Translations under genes and position numbers: made by a program
IMG/VR virus record: IMGVR_UViG_2879905790_000001
Coordinates: 132,982-196,981 of that record
Source: a virus
Taxonomy: Duplodnaviria; Caudoviricetes
DNA: 64,000 nt
Reading direction: 5' to 3' (one strand)
Part shown: positions 101 through 10,924 of the stretch, in pieces
Numbering within the stretch: position 1 is the first letter of the stretch
Layout: every line of letters begins with the position of its first letter
Notes under the pieces: model-generated
What the model was told of the DNA's origin: nothing
Seen by the model: only the letters and a program-made list of their open reading frames with translations
The model's database searches: none

Positions 101-582
101 TTTAAATAATATATATAAGAACCGTAAATTCTTTAATCATGTTTGAGGTGTCGTTCATATAAGTTCGCTACTTCTTATACAGTTCTCTTATGAACTTCTT
201 ATACTTTCATATAAGCACAGACTATATCTTATCCCTCATCATTACATGTTAGGGTCTACCCACTTCGGACTGCTTAGTCCTACTTCCCTCAAGAGGAATA
301 GTCGTTGAGCCTTTCTCTATTCGAGACTTGGTTGCTGATTACCCATTATTAAAGTGTTTAGGATTTAACCTTGCACTATCCAATTAATTTTTTCTACTTT
401 CGTAACTTTCACACTTAGACTTATTTCATTCTTATGTTGTAGTTTAATTGGCTTTAGGGCTTCCCAGCAATTCAAGTAGTATTGGGTATTGTGACTAATA
501 CCACTACATATAGATTTCTCTATATGCTAACTGTTTGCCAACTAACTCATGACTGAAGTCACGAGTATGCGTTGACAAGTCA
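1..582 (-). mobile_element. IS605-type IStron (group I intron plus IS200/IS605 left end), 5' part, inserted in the tape measure gene
   Basis: Insertion directly after TTGAT (587-583). P1 pairs TTGAT with GTCAA, with U.G at the splice site. IS200/605-like hairpin CTCGTGAC-TTCA-GTCATGAG at 546-565. Group I core motifs CAACGACTAT (~298-307) and AAGATATAGTC (~220-230). The 3' end is outside the window. Confidence 0.8.
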
Positions 583-3453
583 ATCAATTTTAGATAAGTA
601 ATTTATATAATTAATATCATTTTTATTCTGTAAATCTACATCAGTTCTTAGCTGAGTAATTGTTCTATCAATAGATTTAACTTTATCATCGAACTGACCT
701 AATCTAGCTTCTAATATTTGAATATTTATTTTATTTAACTCTTCTTCAAGCTCAAGATTTTTCTTTTCCATATCCATTGATTTTCCAATCAAGTCCATCT
801 GTTCATCTATTGTAGAATGTATAGATGATTCTGAACCACCATATTCCTTCATGAATTTTTTAACTTTAGGAATATAATCTTTAGTTTCTTTGAATGGAGG
901 AACACCTCCGTATTTTTGAACATTTCCCATACCTGCATTATAAGCAGCTAATGCCAAATCTAAATTACCATTATATTTTTTCAGATATTTAGAAATTTCT
1001 TGTGTACCACCCATAATATTTTGACGTGGATCGAATGGATTATTTACTCCTAATTCTCTAGCTGTTTCAGGCATCAACTGCATTAAACCCATTGCCCCTG
1101 CACCAGAACGGTCATTAGGATTAAAATCTGATTCAGCTTTTATTATTGCAGCTATTAACGCAGCAGAAACTCCATATTTACTAGCTGCTTCATTTATATA
1201 ACTAGCATATTTACCACTATAGTTAGATGAAGTCGTTCTACTAACAGAGCTTCCTCCACTTGCATATCTTCTGGCAGTTGCATAATCACTTCTACTATTT
1301 AAACTAGAAACTTTAATTACATCACCTGACTTTGGTGCATGTATATATTGTCCATTTCCCATATATATTCCTACATGGTGTGGTGAAGATGGACTACCAA
1401 AGAAAACAGCGTCTCCTACTTGTAATTGATTTTTAGCAACAGGAGTTCCCTGTTTAACTTGGTCATATGTAGTTCTATTTAATTGTATTCCTACTTGTTT
1501 ATATACGTATTGAACTAATCCAGAACAGTCAAAAGATTCACTGGGGTTAGAGCCTCCCCATTTATATGGTTTTCCTAAATACTGTTGTGCATTTCTTACT
1601 ACTTGTTCACCAATACTATTGCCCATACCATTAACATATGAACCACCTACAGCACCTAGTGAGTTAGCTAATTGTCCATTCATAGCAATTTGTTGCTTAT
1701 TTAATGCAATTTCTTGTTTAATTAGATTCTGTTTTTCTTTTAATTTATTTATGTAACTATCACTATGTTCATATAATCTTCCTAATGCGATATTATTTTT
1801 AGTCATTTGAATTTCTAGTGATTTTAATGCTAATTCATATTGCTTTACCGCTTCTTTAGCTTTATTTACAGCTTCTCTATTTTTATCCGTCTCACCTGTA
1901 TTTTCTTTTAATGCATCTGTACTTTTTTTTAATTTTTCTGGGTCTGTAGGGTTGAAATCTGGTACATCGGGAGTTGTTGTACTAGTGGGTTGCTTATAAA
2001 TGCTATCTAATCTATCCAGTTCCTTTTGCCAATCTAACTTTTCACTTGTCAACATATCTACTGGTTTTTGAAAAGGATTTGTTCCTGTAATCTTTAAACT
2101 TGGAAGAACCTCATTAAAAGTATCTGCTAACTTTTGCTTTTTCCCAATTTCCTCTTGTAAAAAAAGTATCCTTTTTCTAGTCTCTTCATAAGACATTTTA
2201 GTCATTCCTCGTTGTGCTTGAGCATGTTGCTTTGCTGCTTCTAATTTAACTTTAGTAAGTTTGTCAACAGTAAGTCCTTCAGTGTTAAGAACATCTATCT
2301 CTGTATTTAGCAAACCTGTATTCTCAATTATTACATTACCTTCTTTATCTTTTGTCAGAATCAACCCTTTAACTTTATCATTTAAAGATTCGGATACATG
2401 ACTTAATTCCATTTCTTGGCTTTTGTTTTTATTTTTAATTGAAATTAATCTATTATATTCATCATATAACCCGATAATAGCATCTTTTTCTTGAATTTCA
2501 TAATCTGCATTTTCTTTTATTGCATTTGCCATGTCCAAATTAGCCATATGAGATGATGCTTTTGCTAGGTCAGCTATCTTTCCTGTTGTTTCATCAATTG
2601 TAAAGTTGTTATCTTTAAGTGCTTTTTTTAGTTCTTGAATTCGAGTTTCAGTTTCTTTTAACTGATTAGCAACTCCTAAACTTACTCCATCTTTCATATT
2701 GGGTGAACCTTCCATCATCTTTTTCAGTTCTTCCCTTTTTTTCATTAAACCCTGTAATTCATCTTGAGCCTTTTTAGGGTCTTCTGAAGCATTTTTTATA
2801 GCTTCTTTATTATTTTCTTTCATTGCCTTGGTTAAATCTTCATAACTTTGTTTTAGTTTTTTATTTTCTTCTCTCATTTTTGATTGATGTTTTATGTGTT
2901 TAATTACTGCTGCTGTTGCTACACCTATTGCTGTTGCTATACCTAAGAATATTAATCCCGTTGGCGTTGTCACTAAATTTAATAAGACTGTTCCTAAATT
3001 TGAAAATGCCCCTTTTAATTTACTTATAGATGGTAATCCTGCATCAGTTATATTAAATAATGTTTTAAATGCTGTACTTATCGAATATAAGTTTTTACCA
3101 TCTTTTAAAACATTAAAAAAATCTTTAAATCTTTTTGCTAATAAAATTGTTGTTGGCAGTAAAACTAATAAACTTAATTTCATACCACCACTTGAATTAA
3201 CTAATGCATCTAATACACCAACCAATTTAGTTCCTGATTGAACTATTACTTTTAAAGCATCACTAGAAATTATGGATTGATAAAACTCTTCCCAAGTATG
3301 TTTAAAATCTTTAACTTTTGCTTCAAGCGAATTTCCATAAATTTTATTAAATTTATCTTCGGAATCTCCTGCTGCTTTATTCACCTCTTTTTGAAGGTTA
3401 TTCACTTGATCTAAGTTATTCATCAATACCAAGAAATTTTCCCTTTGGTGCGT
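583..3453 (-). CDS. Tape measure protein exon 3, with NlpC/P60 and lytic transglycosylase (SLT) domains
   Basis: NlpC/P60 motifs YLGKPYKWGG, FDCSGLV, HVGIY. SLT motifs IIKAESDF, GAMGLMQLMP, ALAAYNAG. Long coiled coils. Joins exon 2 in frame (SLAG|THQRENFLVLMNN). Confidence 0.9.
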
Positions 3454-4746
3454 CAAGCTGTTACTTTCACTTGCAAAAACAAGTTACTGACCATAACAAA
3501 TTATTTTGCTATGGCGGGAATGGTACTTCTTTAGGTAATTATTTCATACCGACCATTCCTCTCTATGTTTCCATAGACGATCAGACTCTATCTTCATCCT
3601 ATATTTTTTATAGGAGGCGAACGTACTAGTCGTTACGGATTTTATTTATTTAAAATATAGTATTTAATTTATCTAAATCTTTCTCAAATAATTCAATTAA
3701 TTTTATGTTATTATCTTTACATATCTGTCTTTTTATTTCCATCTTTTTATAATAATAAGATTTATCTGGGAGTCCAAAATATTCAACAAAAACATTATTA
3801 TCTATAATCCAATCACATCTTTTGGTTTTGCATCTTTCATCATCCATATAGTCTTTATAATATGGTTCTTTGATATATTTAATATTATTTTTTATAAAGA
3901 AATCAGTAATTATTGTTTCTGCATTTGAAAAACAAACATCTCCGTTTAAAGATTTAGGTATTTTTCTTTTTTTGCCAAATAAACATATATTAATATCTAA
4001 ATCTGCTAATTTACATGCATTAATATAAGAACCAAAATATCTTCTATAAGACGACTCAGATGGCAAGTTATATAATCTTAATTCGGGTATTTTTGGTGTT
4101 CTACCTAATTTATCAGCTAAGTTTTGCAATTGTTCAAGCATATCATCTGGATTATATTTCTTTACTCCTTTTTTATCTTTTTTTAAATTATTTTTATTAG
4201 CCATTGTTCTAATGCTTTCTACATTTCTATTAGTAAAAAACTTTTCTGACAACTCTTTATTAGTATATTTTCCATATACTCGTTCTAATAATTTCATTTC
4301 ATCTTCTGACCATTTATCTGTTTTATGTAATTTTAAATTATTAGCTTTTGTCATTATTGCAACTGGAGTTTTATTTAAATGTTTTGCTATCTCCTCTATA
4401 GGCATTTTATCATAATTATTTTTTAAAAAATCTATATCTTTATCTGTATAATAAAAACCCTGTCTTTTTATATTTAATTTATATGCCTTATGGATTATAC
4501 TTTCTTTATTTGAACATTGTAAAACTTCAAATAAAAAATCCCAACTACTGTTAGGATAATATTTTTTCAATAATTCTATTTTCTCGCTTGTCCACTTTAT
4601 ATTCATCACCATCTTTTTTATTTTATTACACTATATTTTAAATAAATAATCTTTCCTCGGAATTGCCCACATCATTACATGTTTGGGGTTTTCCCGATAT
4701 GGTTCGCTTCTTAATATACATTGCTGTATACTCAGGCACACATTTT
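3454..4746 (-). ncRNA. Group I intron 2 of the tape measure gene (endonuclease-containing)
   Basis: P1 CAGGT/GCCTG with U.G. P10 TGTGT pairs with 3' exon ACGCA. Terminal G at 3454. Core motifs TAACGACTAGT and GAAGATAGAGTCT near 3580-3635. Removal restores the frame. Confidence 0.88.
3650..4612 (-). CDS. Intron-encoded putative homing endonuclease (Myb/SANT-like and endonuclease-associated repeats plus a PD-(D/E)xK/Vsr-like domain)
   Basis: Lies inside intron 2. Repeated W/Y-T-x-E-x-I-x-LL units and a LGRTP...Y.R.FGS repeat. C-terminal S..E, CDW..., FVEYFG, KLIEL pattern. Confidence 0.75.
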   Translation of the reverse strand: MVMNIKWTSEKIELLKKYYPNSSWDFLFEVLQCSNKESIIHKAYKLNIKRQGFYYTDKDIDFLKNNYDKMPIEEIAKHLNKTPVAIMTKANNLKLHKTDKWSEDEMKLLERVYGKYTNKELSEKFFTNRNVESIRTMANKNNLKKDKKGVKKYNPDDMLEQLQNLADKLGRTPKIPELRLYNLPSESSYRRYFGSYINACKLADLDINICLFGKKRKIPKSLNGDVCFSNAETIITDFFIKNNIKYIKEPYYKDYMDDERCKTKRCDWIIDNNVFVEYFGLPDKSYYYKKMEIKRQICKDNNIKLIELFEKDLDKLNTIF

Positions 4747-5355
4747 ACCTGCTAAACTTTTGGCTATATCTGCTTTTTCTAAATCATTGAATTCTTTCCA
4801 TTTTGGTTTAAGCTCTTCAATAATTTGAGAAAACTCTTTGAAATGATACTTATCTTTTCTAAGTGCAACTCCTACTTTATCCAACGACTTTTCAACGTTA
4901 GATATAGTTACACCATCATCAACATTAATATTTTGTTTAATATCTTGAAATCTTGCGAACATGGTTTTAAAGGATTCACCAATACTTTCCGCAGATTTTC
5001 TTGTTGTAGCTGAAACTGTAGCCACATAAGATGCTAATGTTTCAAAACTTACTCCTGCCATTTGTGCTGAAGATGATGTTCTCATCATAGCAGTAGCAAC
5101 TTCTTGGAATGAAGTAGCAGAAGCATTATCTAATGTTGAAATAGTATCTATAACATGCATTACTACCTCTTCATAACTTTTTCCATCTTTCTGTGCTTGT
5201 TCAGTCATATTACTAAAACCGTTAGTTATTGCAATTAATTGTTCTGAAACTGCTCTATTATCTTGTCCTGAAATTGCACCACCAATTGTAGAAGCCTTTA
5301 ATAATCCTTTAGTTTCTTCTACGCTTCTACCAGCTCTAAGGAACTCTTCTGCACC
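4747..5355 (-). CDS. Tape measure protein exon 2 (TP901-type TMP core)
   Basis: TMP-like motifs (DNASATSFQEVATAM, TRKSAESIGESFKTMFAR). Bounded by two group I splice sites and in frame with both neighbours. Confidence 0.88.
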
Positions 5356-5693
5356 CATTAATTATTTAAATTAATCAATAGACTATATCATACTTATTAG
5401 GTTAAGTCCTCGCACTTCCACCCATAGAGTTTCGCTATGGATGTACTAATAGTGTTAATTCACTCTACTTCCTTATTTACATAAACAACCCTAATTACAT
5501 TTATGCTATGGTTTCGATAGTCGTTTAACGATTATATATTTAAAAATAAATATAATTTCGCACAGGATTGGATTTCTCTTCCCCTGTTAGCACATTTATT
5601 AACAAATTATTTCCCATTTGATACTTTAACGTTAAATGTACACCCTAGATTTCTAGGTTCACGAGGTTTTACATGGGCAATAGTGCTTTGTTC
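5356..5693 (-). ncRNA. Group I intron 1 of the tape measure gene (338 nt, no ORF)
   Basis: P1 ATGGGT/GCCCAT with U.G. P10 GCACT pairs with 3' exon GGTGC. Core motifs AAACGACTAT and GATATAGTC. Terminal G at 5356. Splicing gives ...EMMG|GAEEF... Confidence 0.88.
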
Positions 5694-7160
5694 ACCCATC
5701 ATTTCTAATGTAGTAGTATGTAATTGACCTGCTAATTTGCTGTACTCATCAGTCAAACCTGCGACTTCTTTTTTACCAATACCAGCTATCATACTTATAT
5801 TAGTTTGAGCTTTATCTAAATCAGCTATAAAGCCAATACCTTCCTTGACCTTATGTATGGCTTCCATCCAAGCAGTAGTAGCACCTATCCAAATGGGAAA
5901 CTTTGTCATTGCCTCACCAATAGAAGCTAATATACCCCCATTCCCCTTTTTACCACCACTATTTACAGAGTTCTCTAATTTATCATATTCATTTTTTATA
6001 ACCTTCAATTGCCTAGCGTATTCTTCAGGTTCTTTTGAATTTGCTAATTTAGCCATTTCTTCTCTTAGTTTTTTTAAATCAGCTTCTTTAATTAATTTCC
6101 CATAAGAATCTGTTAATTTTTTTATTTTATTTTCATATCCTTGTATTGCTACAGGAGCATCTTTCATTATCTTTTCTTTTTTTTTCATTTCGGTGTTATT
6201 TTCTTTAATTGTTTTATTTTCAAAATTCATTTTGCTAACTAAAATATCAAGTTCTTTTTGAATACTTTTACTCATAGACTCACTAGATGATTTTGTTTTA
6301 TCAATTAAAGTCTGTGCTTGTTCAAGATTCTTAACAAACAATTGACTTTGCCTTCCATCACCTAATTTTATATTTTTTTCATTTAATTTATCTATGGTTT
6401 TCTGATATTGTTCTAATGTTTTTATACTTTTTTGTACATTTTCAGTAGTATTAAACCCTGTATTTTCTAAAGATAAACCTTTATTTATAACATTTTCTTT
6501 TCTTTTTATATCTTCTTTTATTTTATACGCCTGTTCAACTAATTTATTATCATTATCTACATAACTAATTTTTGCACTTTGAATTCTACCATTTCCGCTT
6601 TCACTAACCTTTAATTTAGCTATAGAACCAGTTAATTCTTCTATCTTTTTTCTTTCTTTTTCCAATGATTTAATTATTTTATCCTGATCTTGTAATCTTG
6701 TATCAGTCACAGCTTTTAATTTATCAATATACTTTCCATCGTTACCTATATTTTTAAATGATTTATCTATCTCGTAATTCTTTGTTACAATATTTCCTGC
6801 CTTGTCTTCATACTGAGCCATAGCACCTATTATCTTTCCATAATCATCTTTTATAGAATTAACATTTACATTTGACCCTATGTTTTTTAAATTATTTTTT
6901 ATTTTATCTATTTGTTGTTCAAATTGTTTATTTACATTATCAAAAGTCTTTATAAATGTTTGACTAGATTGGTTACTAGCTTTAATAATTTCTTGCTGTA
7001 GTTTATTTATTTGTTGCTGCATTTTATCTAAAGACATACCATCTGAAAAATCTAGTTTTATTTTACTATTTTCTCCTACTTTACCTAAAAGAGTTTCAAC
7101 TCTAGTAGTTAAAGAACCTAAATCTTCTAAAGTAAACGAAGTATGTATACCTAAACTCAT
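5694..7160 (-). CDS. Tape measure protein exon 1
   Basis: GGAGG RBS before ATG 7160 (MSLGIH...). Coiled coil, then TMP motifs KFPIWIGATT and DLDKAQTNI. Confidence 0.85.
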
Positions 7161-7324
7161 TTTAAAATTCCTCCTTTCATATTTGTTTACTTTAAATTTA
7201 TTTACATAATATTTTTTATGTGAATAAATTAAACAAAAATAAAAAGACATTATAAAAAATGCCTTTAAATCTTAATTTTATGCAAAATTAAAAAAACCTC
7301 TAAGCTTTTATCAGCTAGAAGTTT

Positions 7325-7951
7325 TCAATTAATTAATTTTTTTATATCATTGATTCCATAAGATTCTTTTGTTAAATTTAATATTTTTTCATTGTTGTTA
7401 TTATCTTCTTCAAATTTAATTATCATACAAACACATTTCTCATTTTCATATTCAATAAGTGTTTGTAATTTGTTTTCCATTTTTTCAAAGCCAACCTTAT
7501 TATAAACATGTTTAGTTTTTTTATCATCTAAAGATAAAACTAATATTGCTTGAACTCCTATTAATTTTCTTATAAAAAAAATATGTGGTAATACATAATT
7601 TAATAATATATTTTGCCCAAGTTTTTTATTTTGATAATCCATGTGAACTGCAAATCGAGAAAGTTCTATAGTTGGTATAACTATATATTTTCTTTTATCA
7701 TCATCTGGTAATTGCTTATCTTCAAATTCGGGATTTTCCATTTGTATAGAATTAGATCGTAAGGTATAATAAGCAATAATTTGATTTTTTACATCACTTT
7801 TTATTAAATAAGTATTACCTTCTCCTGTAGTATTATAATGAAAAGCTTCATTTTTAAGAAAATTGGCTAATGAATCATATTCTATACCACATTCAAAATC
7901 ATCTACTTCTCTAAAATGTTTATCACTTAATCGTTCTAAATATAATGACAT
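7325..7951 (-). CDS. GNAT-family acetyltransferase, probable type II toxin
   Basis: DDFECG...LANFLK, IAYYTL, IPTIELSRFAVHMDYQNKKLG and YNKVGF match TA-type GNATs. Preceded by a small gene. Confidence 0.8.
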   Translation of the reverse strand: MSLYLERLSDKHFREVDDFECGIEYDSLANFLKNEAFHYNTTGEGNTYLIKSDVKNQIIAYYTLRSNSIQMENPEFEDKQLPDDDKRKYIVIPTIELSRFAVHMDYQNKKLGQNILLNYVLPHIFFIRKLIGVQAILVLSLDDKKTKHVYNKVGFEKMENKLQTLIEYENEKCVCMIIKFEEDNNNNEKILNLTKESYGINDIKKLIN

Positions 7952-7966
7952 ACATAAACCCTTTCT

Positions 7967-8191
7967 TTATAAGCCTTCTTTTTCCACGATTTCTTTTAAT
8001 TTTTTACCACACTCTTTAAAAACATTCAATTTTAAGGTACTTTTCTCCATATCTTTTAATAAAATTTTAGCGTCTTCTTTTTTTAAGCAAGGTAAAACTC
8101 CCATAGATACTGCCATCATCTTTTCCCCCTTTTGTTTTTTTACTTTAAGCTTGTACACTTTTTTATAGCCTGTCCATCTCTTTATATCCAT
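7967..8191 (-). CDS. Putative antitoxin of the GNAT toxin (internal start 8119, fused MDIKRW leader)
   Basis: Small gene directly upstream of the GNAT. Second RBS GGGGGA before ATG 8119. Confidence 0.6.
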   Translation of the reverse strand: MDIKRWTGYKKVYKLKVKKQKGEKMMAVSMGVLPCLKKEDAKILLKDMEKSTLKLNVFKECGKKLKEIVEKEGL

Positions 8192-8294
8192 TTTACCACC
8201 TCATATACCAAAATTCAACATTTTGTCGAGCGATTTAATATGTAAATATGCATATAATCTATTTCGTTCGTATATAATAAATAATTAGCATATT

Positions 8295-8446
8295 TATATA
8301 TTACCATAAATTGGTATAATATTGATGATAATTCGTACCAAAAATATAGACAGAATGGTTATTAAAAGTTATTAATTATATATTAAGATACAAAGTTTTA
8401 TTGAGAATTTTATCGAATAAAAACTTTTAGCTTTGATTTATTAAGA
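8295..8446. repeat. ~150-bp diverged direct repeat, copy A (upstream of the GNAT TA operon)
   Basis: Shares blocks TATATATTACCATA, ATGATAATTCGT, AGACAGAATGG, TATTAAAA, AGAATTTT, CTTTGATT..TTAAGA, in order and spacing, with 13028-13180. Confidence 0.85.
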
Positions 8447-8770
8447 TCGTAAACCTCATACGATTAAGGTCATGTAATTCTTTATACATTGTTTGATATT
8501 TAAGTTTTCACATATTACTACGCCACTCTTAAACGTATTGGATTGTCCAAAAATCCATTATCCATCATCTTTATCAAAGAATTTGGAGTACATTTTAAAT
8601 ACTTTCTCATTATATCATCTATTTTTTAAGCAAATTATAAATATCTTTCTCATTCAATTTAAATATTTTTTTTACTTTTTTTCCACATTTAATCATATTT
8701 TTAAAGCTTTTATTTTTAATGCTTAGTTCTGTATTATTTTTTAATGAGATATTTTTTACCATAATTGAAT

Positions 8771-8929
8771 CTACCTACCTTTTATAAGTTTAATCTTTTT
8801 AGTGCCATTTAATACTTCCTCACTCCATTCAAAAGGTATAACATTTTTTAATGCCTCTTTTGATGATATAGTAGTTATGTTTTTTGTTGCTAATTTATCT
8901 AATTTCAGAGACCTCTTCATAATATTCAT
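8771..8929 (-). CDS. Small 52-aa protein, antitoxin-like
   Basis: Not in the ORF track. GGGAGTG RBS. MNIMKRSLKLDKLATKNITTISSKEALKNVIPFEWSEEVLNGTKKIKLIKGR. Confidence 0.6.
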   Translation of the reverse strand: MNIMKRSLKLDKLATKNITTISSKEALKNVIPFEWSEEVLNGTKKIKLIKGR

Positions 8930-8982
8930 CACTCCCAGTACAAATATTTATAATAAACCCTTTATAAGTTATATATCTTAGT

Positions 8983-9204
8983 TTATCTATTATATTTTCT
9001 ATACTTTTCAATAAGTTCTTCTTCATACCAGTCTGCAAAGCAATCACCTTATTCGCTCTTATATATGTTTTACTCTATTGTAAGCAGAAACTCTTCTTTA
9101 GTAGCTTTCTGTAATGCTAAACTATACTTACTTGTATTTTTCTCCTTTTTGTAATTTTGACTTTCTTTATCTCTGTAATCTTTTAAGCTAATTATTTTTC
9201 CCAT
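8983..9204 (-). pseudogene. Small MGKIISLKDY protein with two in-frame TAA codons
   Basis: GAGGT RBS. Frame continues ...LTIE*NIYKSE*GDCFADWYEEELIEKYRKYNR*. Confidence 0.5.
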
Positions 9205-9223
9205 ACAACTACCTCTTCGTCCC

Positions 9224-9448
9224 TTAATTTATATTTTTGATATCATTATCTTTATATAACTCATCCCACTCTGTTTCTTTTCTCCATTCATCTTCTTTAG
9301 TTAATAAACTTCTACCTTTATCATCAGTTTTTATATTTTTCATTAACAAAGTTTTTAGCTTTACTTTATCATCTCTAATATGTGTCTTTTGCTTATCTCT
9401 TGTGAATGTGAATGATTGACTACAGTTCATCCATCTTTTTATATTCAT
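9224..9448 (-). CDS. Small MNIKRW-leader protein, antitoxin-like acidic C-terminus
   Basis: AGGAG RBS. Ends KTDDKGRSLLTKEDEWRKETEWDELY... Confidence 0.65.
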   Translation of the reverse strand: MNIKRWMNCSQSFTFTRDKQKTHIRDDKVKLKTLLMKNIKTDDKGRSLLTKEDEWRKETEWDELYKDNDIKNIN

Positions 9449-9452
9449 ACTA

Positions 9453-9701
9453 TTACTCCTTAGTCTCTTGCTTGATATTCTCTATTATATTTTCTACCTG
9501 TTCTTTTGTTAAACCTTTCTTTTTGGCAGCATTAGTGAATATATCTGCAATAATATCCCATTCACACTTATCTTCTTCTTCATCTTCTGAAATTATAACT
9601 TGTCCCATTTTATTTCTTTTAGTATTTTTTTCAGCAATTATAGTAGCTTTATATAGATTATTATCTAGTTCTTTTTGCAATTCAGATAATCTGTCACTCA
9701 T
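9453..9701 (-). CDS. Small protein, antitoxin-like
   Basis: GAGGTG RBS, tightly packed in the operon. Contains KRNKMGQVIISEDEE..EWD and AKKKGLTKEQVE. Confidence 0.65.
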   Translation of the reverse strand: MSDRLSELQKELDNNLYKATIIAEKNTKRNKMGQVIISEDEEEDKCEWDIIADIFTNAAKKKGLTKEQVENIIENIKQETKE

Positions 9702-9704
9702 AGA

Positions 9705-9866
9705 TTACACCTCATTTTCTGATTCTTCTGCCCATTTATCCCATAATTGTTGAGATTCTTTTAATGATTTTAATTTTTTCTTACCTTTATTAAAATCCTG
9801 TATTTCTTGAAAACTTATTTCTATAGATTTTAATATATCATTAGGTCTTTGACTTATTTTTTTCAT
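9705..9866 (-). CDS. Small 53-aa protein resembling RelE-partner antitoxin C-termini
   Basis: Not in the ORF track. GAGG RBS. MKKISQRPNDILKSIEISFQEIQDFIKGKKKLKSLKESQQLWDKWAEESENEV. Confidence 0.6.
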   Translation of the reverse strand: MKKISQRPNDILKSIEISFQEIQDFNKGKKKLKSLKESQQLWDKWAEESENEV

Positions 9867-9890
9867 AATAAAACCTCTTAATAATCTTAT

Positions 9891-10088
9891 TTAATCTTCC
9901 TCTCTATATTTTCCTCTCATTTTATTACATATCTCATCCTCTTCTTGAGTAGATTTATAATTTCTATCATAATAATCATAGACTTCTTTTCTCTTTTTTG
10001 GGTCAACAATCATATCTGACATAGAATAAGATTCTATTTATATTCTTTTGTTTTGAGAGTATGCTTCTAAATCTATTATCTTTCTCAT
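9891..10088 (-). pseudogene. Small MRKIIDLEAY protein with one in-frame TAA
   Basis: AGGAGG RBS before ATG 10088. Frame continues after TAA 10040-10038 as IESYSMSDMIVDPKKRKEVYDYY... Confidence 0.5.
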
Positions 10089-10325
10089 ATCCTTCCTCCT
10101 GATTAATAAAAGTTCTAATAGTTCCTTACCTTTAGCTAACTTTGCTTCTACATCTATATCCTCAATTTCTATTTTATCATTATGATCTTCCTCAAAAAAC
10201 ATATCTAAGTATCTATCATCATCATATAGTAAATCTGCTTTTGCTTCCATTATTTCTTCCTTCGTTAAGGTTTCTTTTGGTTTTATTTCTTTTTTATAAT
10301 CAAAAATATCAATTATTTTACCCAT
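10038..10325 (-). CDS. Small acidic MGKIIDIFDY protein, read through into the next gene
   Basis: ORF track. GGAGTG RBS. Confidence 0.6.
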   Translation of the reverse strand: MGKIIDIFDYKKEIKPKETLTKEEIMEAKADLLYDDDRYLDMFFEEDHNDKIEIEDIDVEAKLAKGKELLELLLIRRKDMRKIIDLEAYSQNKRI

Positions 10326-10341
10326 AATTTTCACTCCGTAC

Positions 10342-10497
10342 TTACGAATCAGCTAGTTTCTTTAACGCTTTAGCATATTTTTTATTACACTTTTTAATTG
10401 ATAAAATTACATCTTTAGTATTTGCCACTGTATAGTTTTGTGATGTATTTTTTTCTTTAAGCTTATTTTTATTATCATTCCACCTTTTGACATTCAT
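10342..10497 (-). CDS. Small 51-aa MNVKRW-leader protein with a Doc-antitoxin-like C-terminus
   Basis: Not in the ORF track. AGGAG RBS. Ends CNKKYAKALKKLADS. Confidence 0.6.
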   Translation of the reverse strand: MNVKRWNDNKNKLKEKNTSQNYTVANTKDVILSIKKCNKKYAKALKKLADS

Positions 10498-10521
10498 AAT
10501 TTTTCTCCTATACTTTTGAAA

Positions 10522-10716
10522 TTATTTTTTAGATGGTTTCTTATATAAATTAGCAACTCTTTTACATTTATCTAAGTATTCTTTAGTTAGTCCTGGTTTT
10601 TCTAACTTTTTAACTATACTATTGAAATCATCTTTGGATACTGTAAATTCAAATATATTATTACTTCTATTATATATCTTCACATTCTTTAAAATAATCA
10701 TATAAAGACTTTTCAT
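10522..10716 (-). CDS. Small protein similar to the GNAT-antitoxin candidate
   Basis: SKDDFNSIVKKLEKPGLTKEYLDKC aligns without gaps to KKEDAKILLKDMEKSTLKLNVFKEC of 7967-8191. Confidence 0.5.
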   Translation of the reverse strand: MKSLYMIILKNVKIYNRSNNIFEFTVSKDDFNSIVKKLEKPGLTKEYLDKCKRVANLYKKPSKK

Positions 10717-10855
10717 TTATTGGTTTTACAAATTGTGAAAATATTTCTCTTCCTTCTGCATATTCTTCTTGAGAAAGAGTGTTCTTAGTTATTTTTGTAT
10801 TTAAAAAAGATTGTTCATTTTTATTTTTTTCTCTTATAGAATCTAATGTTATCAT
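10670..10855 (-). CDS. Small hypothetical protein
   Basis: GAGAGAGG RBS before MITLDS. Confidence 0.55.
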   Translation of the reverse strand: MITLDSIREKNKNEQSFLNTKITKNTLSQEEYAEGREIFSQFVKPINEKSLYDYFKECEDI

Positions 10856-10924
10856 ACTACCTCTCTCCCCCCCCTTTTTTTGTTCCATAATATAATCCTC
10901 TTACAATTACTATTCTTAATTATA

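Follow-up and report, generated by a model that had tools for sequence, protein, structure and literature searches.

A packed operon of toxin-less antitoxin homologues in the accessory island of a Clostridium botulinum phage-plasmid

The window analysed here is a stretch of 64,000 nucleotides from the virus record IMGVR_UViG_2879905790_000001 (positions 132,982 to 196,981 of that record; all coordinates below are window positions unless a locus handle precedes them). On its minus strand it contains an operon of 11 intact small genes, running from 11293 down to 8619 under one promoter. Seven of the 11 are homologous to genes that occupy the antitoxin position of toxin–antitoxin (TA) modules in related elements, and the operon itself includes no toxin gene. 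We propose that the locus is a co-transcribed operon collecting stand-alone copies of type II antitoxins, which would neutralise in trans the toxins of other elements or of the host. Judged from the sequence comparisons described below, this proposal has about an even chance of being correct. Window positions 7000-13000 are 100% identical to the Clostridium botulinum plasmid pNPD1_1 (NZ_CP013295.1, 196,981 bp, circular). The window encodes a portal protein, a terminase, virion and tail proteins and a tape-measure protein, together with ParB-like, helicase and tubulin-like partition or replication proteins. Because virion and tail genes stand together with partition and replication genes, the element is a phage-plasmid, with a G+C content of 25%.

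The operon is compact and has its own control region (Table 1; genes are named by their lower coordinate). Its promoter is overlapped by a perfect inverted repeat, which is likely the operator. The spacing between consecutive genes ranges from -14 to 36 nucleotides (nt), the sole exception being a 149-nt stretch that holds a deletion scar. A Shine-Dalgarno-like site is found for 10 of the 12 open reading frames (ORFs). An earlier note on this DNA had described a packed minus-strand run of small ORFs at 8771-10888, most of them with their own ribosome-binding site and without a toxin-sized partner. This run is present as described, and the operon extends beyond it on both sides: it begins with 10925-11293 and finishes with 8619-8762. 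Three gene models had to be revised. The ORF at 8895-9047 is spurious: it overlies the deletion scar, whose remnant lies in another frame. The ORF at 9891-10022 has no ribosome-binding site and is not a separate gene, since together with gene 10038 it forms a single protein of 112-121 amino acids (aa) in two related replicons, the phage-plasmid pRSJ19_2 (locus L002) and the conjugative plasmid pCLD (L004). Gene 10522 starts at 10683 (53 aa), not at 10716.

In the RefSeq record NZ_CP013295.1 each of the small ORFs is labelled 'hypothetical protein'. The array families are found again in six other replicons at amino-acid identities of 62-96%. The ratio of nonsynonymous to synonymous substitution rates (dN/dS, Nei-Gojobori method; each pair offers few substitutions to count) does not exceed 0.5 in 51 of 56 pairs and stays below 1 in 55. 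The operon ORFs are real genes under purifying selection, because the families recur at this level of identity, dN/dS is low and Shine-Dalgarno sites are present.

From 11293 to 8619, neither the ORFs nor the family search reveal a gene of toxin size or of a toxin family, so the operon genes are orphans rather than TA modules. Pfam, NCBIfam and PADLOC give no usable match for any operon protein, and PHROGs returns families of unknown function only. In the window, an all-against-all BLAST detects compositional similarity only (best E = 0.002 in a tiny database), and the operon proteins are not detectably paralogous. No match to the window DNA was found in the phage collection, and none to the flanking structural protein among phages. 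A large protein database holds four clusters for the product of 7967-8191, the upstream gene of a neighbouring cassette, and three for that of 8619-8762; the clusters with a named source are all from C. botulinum.

The identity of the operon genes emerges from comparison with genes located directly upstream of, or overlapping, toxin genes in related elements, which are termed partner genes here. Among the replicons used, the group III phage-plasmids were reached by tblastn with single peptides. Sixteen array families were compared with 10 toxin-partner sets by hhalign, giving 160 comparisons. Seven of the 11 intact operon genes match partner genes at 97.8-99.6%. The remaining comparisons reach at most 67%, apart from an eighth array family (99.7%), and the matches at 48-67% involve the leader only (see below), save one 30-column match between gene 9453 and a MazF partner. 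The eighth family has no copy in the window and is present in L005, L006 and L109; it resembles the partner of a RelE-like gene in L002 (78% identity, E = 4e-27).

The matched partner genes are closely associated with recognisable toxin genes. Particularly, the group III phage-plasmid p1BKT015925 (L111, NC_015417.1 139169-149375) has a tandem row of four TA pairs (two with MazF, one with GNAT and one with Doc) in the interval from a very large ORF to tail genes, and a second locus a few kb beyond (L112) contains more pairs (MazF twice, HipA). The partner that resembles gene 10342 is followed immediately by a Fic/Doc toxin gene (Fic 61 bits), and the one that resembles gene 9224 overlaps a PemK/MazF gene. 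The counterpart of gene 10670 is located 26 nt upstream of a 198-aa PemK/MazF gene (PemK_toxin 27.7 bits, cut-off 23.1), and that of gene 8771 is 18 nt upstream of a gene that PGAP names MazF (PemK 18.6 bits, below cut-off). On another group III phage-plasmid, NZ_CP063960.1 (L113), a 4-nt overlap joins the homologue of gene 9453 to a PIN_3 gene (60.6 bits). The homologue of gene 9705 overlaps a RelE/ParE-like gene on the C. perfringens phage-like plasmid pCP955-85 (L115), the toxin scoring below cut-off with RelE (19.6 bits) and ParE (19.4 bits). Finally, the partner corresponding to gene 8619 lies upstream of a PIN_3/TIGR00305 gene on the Su0604 plasmid (L003). Overall, the toxin identities by Pfam and NCBIfam comprise PemK_toxin at 38, 25.5 and 27.7 bits, Fic at 61, PIN_3 at 54.3 and 60.6 and TIGR00305 at 46.9 bits.

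Table 1. Features of the operon and its surroundings in the window. PLSDB-wide tblastn and pairwise E-values are given as such; L-numbers are related loci.
Feature	Position	Strand	Description
HicB-like/HicA-like cassette	12293..12951	-	leader-bearing HicB-like gene (12490-12951) and HicA-like gene (12293-12511); PHD_like 51.4 bits; HicA_toxin E = 0.018; phrog_353 'toxin' E = 3.9e-4
Cro/C1-type helix-turn-helix (HTH) regulator gene	11416..11616	-	Pfam HTH_3 43 bits, cut-off 23; directly upstream of operon
Operon promoter TTGACA-17-TATTAT	11390 to 11362	-	best minus-strand promoter match of the region, 11/12
Perfect 19-bp inverted repeat	11307-11325 / 11349-11367		overlaps operon promoter; 100% complementary
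Gene 10925	10925..11293	-	first operon gene; 122 aa, acidic (isoelectric point, pI, 4.3); 73-77% identical in L002 and L003; dN/dS 0.18-0.29
Gene 10670	10670..10888	-	MazF-partner homologue, orphan; 47% over 60 aa to L112:4884-5189; PLSDB-wide tblastn E = 1e-7; hhalign 98.6%
Gene 10522	10522..10683	-	53-aa basic protein; in 12 PLSDB records, always in array context
Gene 10342	10342..10497	-	Doc-partner homologue, orphan; 51% over 35 aa to L111:6758-6997; pairwise E = 9e-11; hhalign 98.0%
Gene 10038	10038..10325	-	95-aa acidic protein; C-terminal part rearranged relative to the fused protein (121 aa) of L002 and L004; in 12 PLSDB records, each time in array context
Gene fragment	9891..10022	-	C-terminal half of 10038-family gene; aligns to residues 78-121 of L004:6432-6797; no Shine-Dalgarno site
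Gene 9705	9705..9866	-	RelE/ParE-like-partner homologue, orphan; 49% over 47 aa to L115:2489-2644; PLSDB-wide tblastn E = 0.03; hhalign 98.5%
Gene 9453	9453..9701	-	orphan; C-terminal module like PIN partner; 60% over 30 aa to L113:4881-5129; PLSDB-wide tblastn E = 1e-3, pairwise E = 1e-11; hhalign 97.8%
Gene 9224	9224..9448	-	MazF-partner homologue, orphan, with shared leader; 39% over 69 aa to L111:5001-5228; PLSDB-wide tblastn E = 3e-7; hhalign 98.5%
Gene 9070	9070..9204	-	44-aa protein; 82-84% identical in three conjugative plasmids; dN/dS 0.08-0.15
Deletion scar	8983-9048	-	last 21 codons, no start, of a 55-aa gene intact in pCLD-type plasmids (L004 to L007); frame-shifted tblastn pieces
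Gene 8771	8771..8920	-	MazF-partner homologue, orphan; 46.5% over 43 aa to L112:2334-2492; tblastn E = 3e-4 in three group III phage-plasmids (PLSDB); hhalign 98.1%
Gene 8619	8619..8762	-	last operon gene; leaderless PIN-partner homologue, orphan; 67% over 46 aa to L003:4908-5171; pairwise E = 4e-22; hhalign 99.6%
GNAT cassette	7325..8191	-	leader-bearing 74-aa gene (7967-8191), then GNAT acetyltransferase gene (7325-7951); phrog_1758 E = 3.7e-29

These results agree to a large extent with the earlier note, which had called the peptides antitoxin-like and toxin-less, assigned families and expected homologues beside toxin genes. Such homologues are found for the seven operon families, and homology together with gene position supports the antitoxin-like identity of seven of the 11 intact genes. 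Five of its six family guesses hold because of the hhalign matches to partners of Doc (10342), RelE/ParE-like (9705), PIN (9453) and MazF toxins (9224 and 8771, proposed as MazF/PemK partners). Gene 10670, of the MazF-partner type, and gene 8619, of the PIN-partner type and outside the range first described, add to that list. The sixth guess linked 10522 to the partner of the neighbouring GNAT gene. The ungapped alignment on which it was based is reproduced by BLASTP (7 of 29 residues identical to the product of 7967-8191), but the similarity is not significant, with E = 0.19 for the single comparison and an hhalign value of 22% (E about 1e-3 among the 160 comparisons). At least seven putative antitoxin families, named in no library, are thereby defined.

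Further cases were sought by profile sampling of about 385 Clostridiaceae genomes. A leader-bearing gene similar to 8619 lies beside a PIN gene in L131 (one match among 385 scored genomes), and a 9224-like gene lies beside a MazF gene in L133, that MazF being 54% identical to the one in L111. Both loci appear to be independent chromosomal confirmations of the toxin linkage. Two further toxin-less 9224-like copies are present in L132 and L134. In L132 (G059:C66:213300-216300, on a 368-kb contig), 9453-like and 9224-like genes overlap in the same order as in the window and no toxin gene follows, which looks like a two-gene mini-array. For gene 10670, whose core starts at an internal ATG at 10855, the profile recovered only the group III record again over 364 scored genomes.

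The toxin-linked partner genes of these elements share a common head. A leader that begins M-[NKDE]-I-[KQE]-[RK]-W heads 14 of the 18 toxin-linked partner genes examined and occurs with six kinds of toxin (GNAT, HicA-like, RelE-like, PIN, MazF and Doc); all four partners in L111 bear it. It is basic and 24-40 residues long, and it ends at an internal methionine whose codon follows a GGAG-type ribosome-binding site. The strict start M-[ND]-[IVL]-[KER]-R-W is found four times in a six-frame reading of the 197-kb plasmid, and all four are minus-strand gene starts in the island: those of the upstream genes of the GNAT pair (7967-8191) and the HicA-like pair (12490-12951), and those of 9224 and 10342 in the operon. 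Of the seven linked operon genes, five are leaderless and start at or near the position of the internal methionine. Genes 10342 and 9224 retain the first leader residues, and the pCLD copy of 10342 has the full leader. Since five of the seven linked genes are without it, the operon appears to hold mostly the specific antitoxin 'body' without the shared head. Searched against families, the leader matched no known signal, domain or named DNA-binding domain; autoregulatory DNA binding and a degradation tag are guesses at its role. Scanning with the leader DNA pattern gave 10 stretches in viral contigs, one of them a relative, and 85 stretches in genome contigs, all by chance.

The cassettes also share DNA outside their coding regions. 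An upstream block of about 135 nt, without a match in Rfam, is common to six cassettes of four toxin types (GNAT, HicA-like, RelE-like and PIN) in the window, L002, L003 and L109, and is 80% identical within the window. In addition, the two window cassettes (7292-8446 and 12258-13180) share a 3' hairpin (7292-7325 and 12258-12291). Together with the leader codons, the shared flanks look like a platform for cassette exchange. In L109, a 40-aa chimeric gene (L109:14432-14554) has 33 first residues of the 8619 (PIN-partner) type and last residues identical to the C-terminus of the GNAT partner 7967-8191, with the joint at a shared C-G-K-K motif. This gene is evidence of recombination between antitoxin bodies.

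The window DNA matches 22 Clostridium plasmids, and the array is present in two types of mobile element. The sister phage-plasmid pRSJ19_2, identical at this locus to another IMG/VR stretch (L110), keeps most of the array and has in addition a GNAT pair and a RelE/ParE-like pair. A further sister phage-plasmid, L109, has an array invaded by an IS605-type TnpB gene. On the Su0604 plasmid the regulatory HTH gene and the 10925 homologue are followed by a partner gene and a PIN toxin gene, and the array is absent; the neighbourhood of HTH gene and 10925 homologue is likewise retained in pRSJ19_2. The same small-gene block is found in the MPF_T conjugative plasmids pCLD (L004), pCB111 (L005), pCBH (L006) and pOsaka2020-1 (L007), where it abuts replication-relaxation, VirB4-like and TrbC genes. 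Upstream of the array, on the same strand, these four plasmids carry genes for a large methyltransferase, PspC and a member of the PAPS-reductase family (Pfam PAPS_reduct 89.3 bits), and pCLD and pOsaka2020-1 carry a NADAR gene there (Pfam NADAR 171.7 bits). Such anti-defence-type neighbours belong to the conjugative-plasmid context only; on the phage-plasmid of the window the neighbours are TA cassettes and tail genes.

Over the few replicons compared, orphan and toxin-linked forms are complementary in distribution. The body of the RelE partner is leader-bearing and toxin-linked in L002 and orphan in L005, L006 and L109. Similarly, the 8619 type is toxin-linked in L003 and orphan in five replicons.

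The toxins corresponding to the operon genes are missing from the plasmid. The 197-kb plasmid shows no Fic/Doc match and no PIN_3 match over cut-off, and tblastn with the PIN, RelE-like, Doc and MazF toxins of the relatives yields weak pieces only; at E <= 1, the PIN and RelE-like toxins give just short chance matches. One strong PemK/MazF gene is present 118 kb from the operon (G000:C1:15117-15443; L116:1474-2061; 93.6 bits); it shows no relation to the MazF that is paired with the 10670 homologue (E = 0.63). This MazF homologue is 195 aa long with a C-terminal extension, has no small upstream partner and is followed by an overlapping ORF with TPR repeats; the same gene is found in pRSJ19_2. 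None of the four array-bearing conjugative plasmids carries a PemK or PIN_3 gene, and three of them carry a Doc gene. The operon genes are thus real and constrained, homologous to genes in the antitoxin position, and without their cognate toxins on the replicon.

On the proposed reading, the operon products would bind toxins from TA modules of rival phage-plasmids, conjugative plasmids or the host, and this binding would blunt post-segregational killing or abortive infection aimed at the element. The operon would then act as an anti-addiction or counter-defence cassette of several specificities, with the neighbouring Cro-like regulator as its probable switch. We infer this decoy function because the replicon encodes no cognate toxins, purifying selection acts on the genes and their surroundings in conjugative plasmids are anti-defence-like. 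A wider scheme, offered tentatively and with less than even confidence, is that the phage-plasmids and conjugative plasmids of clostridia draw on a common, modular antitoxin economy. Cassettes with common flanks would supply leader and body, and leaderless bodies (three for MazF, two for PIN, one each for Doc and RelE-like toxins) would be gathered in a transferable operon giving pan-immunity against the addiction and abortive-infection toxins of rivals. The locus would in that case be the first multi-specific type II anti-TA operon, and would correspond, on mobile elements, to the known arrays of orphan immunity genes.

Several points count against the decoy proposal. Toxin binding, neutralisation, the targets and the timing of expression are what we infer from the comparisons, and the proposal presumes that plasmid-bearing strains meet the cognate toxins. 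The comparisons do not amount to many independent events, because the homologues come from few, related replicons. Four of the 11 genes (10925, 10522, 10038 and 9070) have no significant match to any toxin-partner set in the 160 hhalign comparisons, and 10342 bears no similarity to the pCLD Doc partner. At curated level, neither the operon proteins nor their toxin-linked homologues match the antitoxin families of Pfam or NCBIfam (MazE, PhdYeFM, VapB, RelB, ParD and others), and three of the reference toxins fall under Pfam cut-offs: a MazF at 18.6 bits and a pair of RelE/ParE-like proteins at 18.3-19.6 bits. The strongly basic character of several members (pI about 10) fits nucleic-acid binding as well as toxin binding. 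Moreover, some operon copies may be relics, because the locus shows decay and shuffling: the scar at 8983-9048, the split 10038/9891 gene, the chimera L109:14432-14554 and the TnpB insertion in L109.

This last point can be extended to the whole locus. The island would then be a recombination hot spot that swaps TA cassettes, and the small genes would be functionless antitoxin halves left behind after toxin loss. The common 5' block, leader codons and 3' hairpin of the cassettes agree with such turnover, as do the signs of decay just listed, and the relative L003 has the same locus without any array. Functionless remnants are nevertheless unlikely, as intact frames and ribosome-binding sites persist at 62-96% identity with dN/dS of 0.08-0.5 across both element types, and gene order is kept in phage-plasmids and conjugative plasmids, in a single operon and not as scattered debris. 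We consider it equally improbable that the operon serves toxins encoded elsewhere on the same element or in its usual host, in trans, as part of its own addiction or defence circuit. The strong PemK/MazF gene without a small upstream partner, shared with pRSJ19_2, would suit the three operon members that are MazF-partner homologues; for the other four linked members, however, the plasmid provides no Fic/Doc, PIN_3 or RelE-like toxin. The lack of relation between this MazF and the one paired with the 10670 homologue also speaks against an in-house role, and so does the absence of PemK and PIN_3 genes from the four conjugative plasmids examined.

The antitoxin descendants could also have become DNA- or RNA-binding regulators, or other host-takeover factors, that no longer bind toxins. 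Type II antitoxins commonly act also as repressors, and HicB-type antitoxins carry a DNA-binding domain at the C-terminal position. In keeping with this, five small operon proteins are very basic (pI 9.8-10.2), and the C-terminal module of 9453 also ends a HicB-like fusion protein (L114:2767-3120), where it occupies the place of the HicB DNA-binding domain. Most operon copies, however, are without the leader and without the cassette promoter blocks that they would regulate, no DNA-binding family is detected in the operon proteins, and the model of 10522 has no fold match. Repurposing to this extent has in our estimate a small chance, and the decoy proposal remains our preferred reading of the operon.

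The four operon genes without a significant TA link differ in character. The product of 10925 matches no family, and its AlphaFold2 (AF2) model, with a predicted local distance difference test (pLDDT) score of 46, is too poor for use. For 10522, the AF2 model (pLDDT 69) consists of an extended N-terminus and two helices; a Foldseek search of the PDB gives no match to it, and the highest VIA Z is 3.0. A short similarity of 10522 to L111:5783-6049 amounts to 50% over 16 aa (E about 0.1). The profile of the 10522 family, run over 395 scored Clostridiaceae genomes, matched only inside long unrelated ORFs and one fragment. In the ESM Atlas, the best score for 10038 (0.83) is at noise level. Several array genes that are not otherwise related begin with a second N-terminal motif, M-[GKR]-K-I-I-[DNS]-x-x-[DT]-Y: 10038-10325 and 9070-9204 in the window and L005:7550-7711, 7148-7348 and 6421-6555. 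The motif may mark a recombination joint or serve these genes as a common functional tag.

The operon sits in an accessory island of about 7 kb (about 7290-14260), flanked by tail-module genes and the tape-measure gene. In the sense of transcription, the minus strand of the island carries a type III TA locus (13400-14094), the HicB-like/HicA-like pair (12293-12951), a lipoprotein-like gene (11744-12124), the HTH gene, the small-gene run and finally the 74-aa gene with the GNAT gene (7325-8191). The GNAT protein was dropped as a proven toxin: it is acidic (pI 5.6), and its Pfam GNAT scores are all below cut-off.

The type III locus contains three tandem 42-nt repeats (13969-14094) that match the Rfam family RF02920, 'Fusobacteriales-1 RNA', at 106 bits. 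Downstream of the repeats lies a gene for a 174-aa homologue of the CptIN-family toxin (NF047359, E = 2.7e-15, 56 bits; the cut-off of 90 bits is not reached). Repeat size and copy number lie within the ranges given for cptIN loci in the cited part of Blower et al. 2012 (PMC3401426), that is 40-48 nt and 1.9-3.4 copies. This suggests that the RF02920 motif could be the antitoxin RNA of cptIN-type loci. On the other side of the island, the tape-measure gene (580-7250, minus strand) is broken into three ORFs (5607-7250, 4732-5358 and 580-3456), which cover the successive positions 211-647, 659-840 and 841-1079 of phrog_4211. A D5/HNH-like ORF (3650-4612) lies between the last two pieces, and the whole TA and small-gene island lies between the tail genes and the first piece.

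TA modules are a main currency of conflict among plasmids, phages and hosts, and the known counter-measures are single genes. If the proposed function is true, mobile elements accumulate broad anti-TA immunity in an operon common to phage-plasmids and conjugative plasmids, and this operon could influence which large plasmids coexist or displace each other in these clostridia. The leader and the shared cassette flanks mark TA partner genes in these elements and give a handle for finding more.

The genes described here share their position with canonical antitoxins: MazE, Phd, VapB and RelB/ParD are encoded upstream of, or overlapping, MazF, Doc, PIN and RelE/ParE-like genes, as are the homologues of the operon genes. 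Unlike canonical type II antitoxins, they match no curated family in sequence, and 14 of the 18 toxin-linked forms have a leader. The proposed trans-neutralisation follows the same logic as anti-addiction. According to this idea, reportedly put forward by Saavedra De Bast and Van Melderen, the antitoxin of one replicon neutralises the TA toxin of another and thereby removes post-segregational killing. The classic cases are said to be complete chromosomal TA pairs acting against plasmids, whereas the copies here are toxin-less, many together, and on mobile elements. Arrays of orphan immunity genes against type VI secretion toxins, for which there is experimental support, likewise consist of immunity-only genes clustered on mobile DNA. 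They embody the same idea of a toxin-less stockpile and differ in toxin delivery and protein families, and the array here is known from sequence alone. In the cited passages, the anti-addiction concept is summarised in PMC12548467 and mentioned in PMC11825919, and the latter draws the analogy between orphan antitoxins and type VI orphan immunity arrays.

The concept of orphan antitoxins is already known; the arrayed, multi-specific, leader-stripped form and the protein families appear to be new and do not appear in print, at the level of titles and abstract openings, where neither an operon of several orphan type II antitoxins nor this C. botulinum locus is found. Closer cases may stand in the supplement of PMC11541004. 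Orphan type II antitoxins are said in the cited part of Johannesman et al. (Nat Commun 2025, PMC11825919) to be rarely described. That study concerns the phage orphan antitoxin AdfN, a DarG1-like NADAR protein that counters TA defence. As with AdfN, the operon genes are toxin-less antitoxin homologues on a mobile element, and in pCLD and pOsaka2020-1 an orphan NADAR gene lies just upstream of the array. Unlike AdfN, a single enzyme gene with type IV logic, the array is made up of homologues of small, binding-type (type II) antitoxins. Samuel et al. (Nature 2024, PMC11541004) describe orphan antitoxins as 'highly represented' in plasmid leading regions and propose that they act against competing elements or against the TA defence of the host. 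The locus resembles those orphans, as described in the main account of that study, in having toxin-less antitoxin genes on a mobile element, clustered on pCLD-type plasmids with methyltransferase and anti-defence-type genes; the likeness is one of gene content. It differs in that the orphans there are single and of known families, for example hipB, whereas here at least seven orphans against four or five toxin classes stand in one operon, their families are in no library, and a phage-plasmid carries the operon as well, with tail genes on either side.

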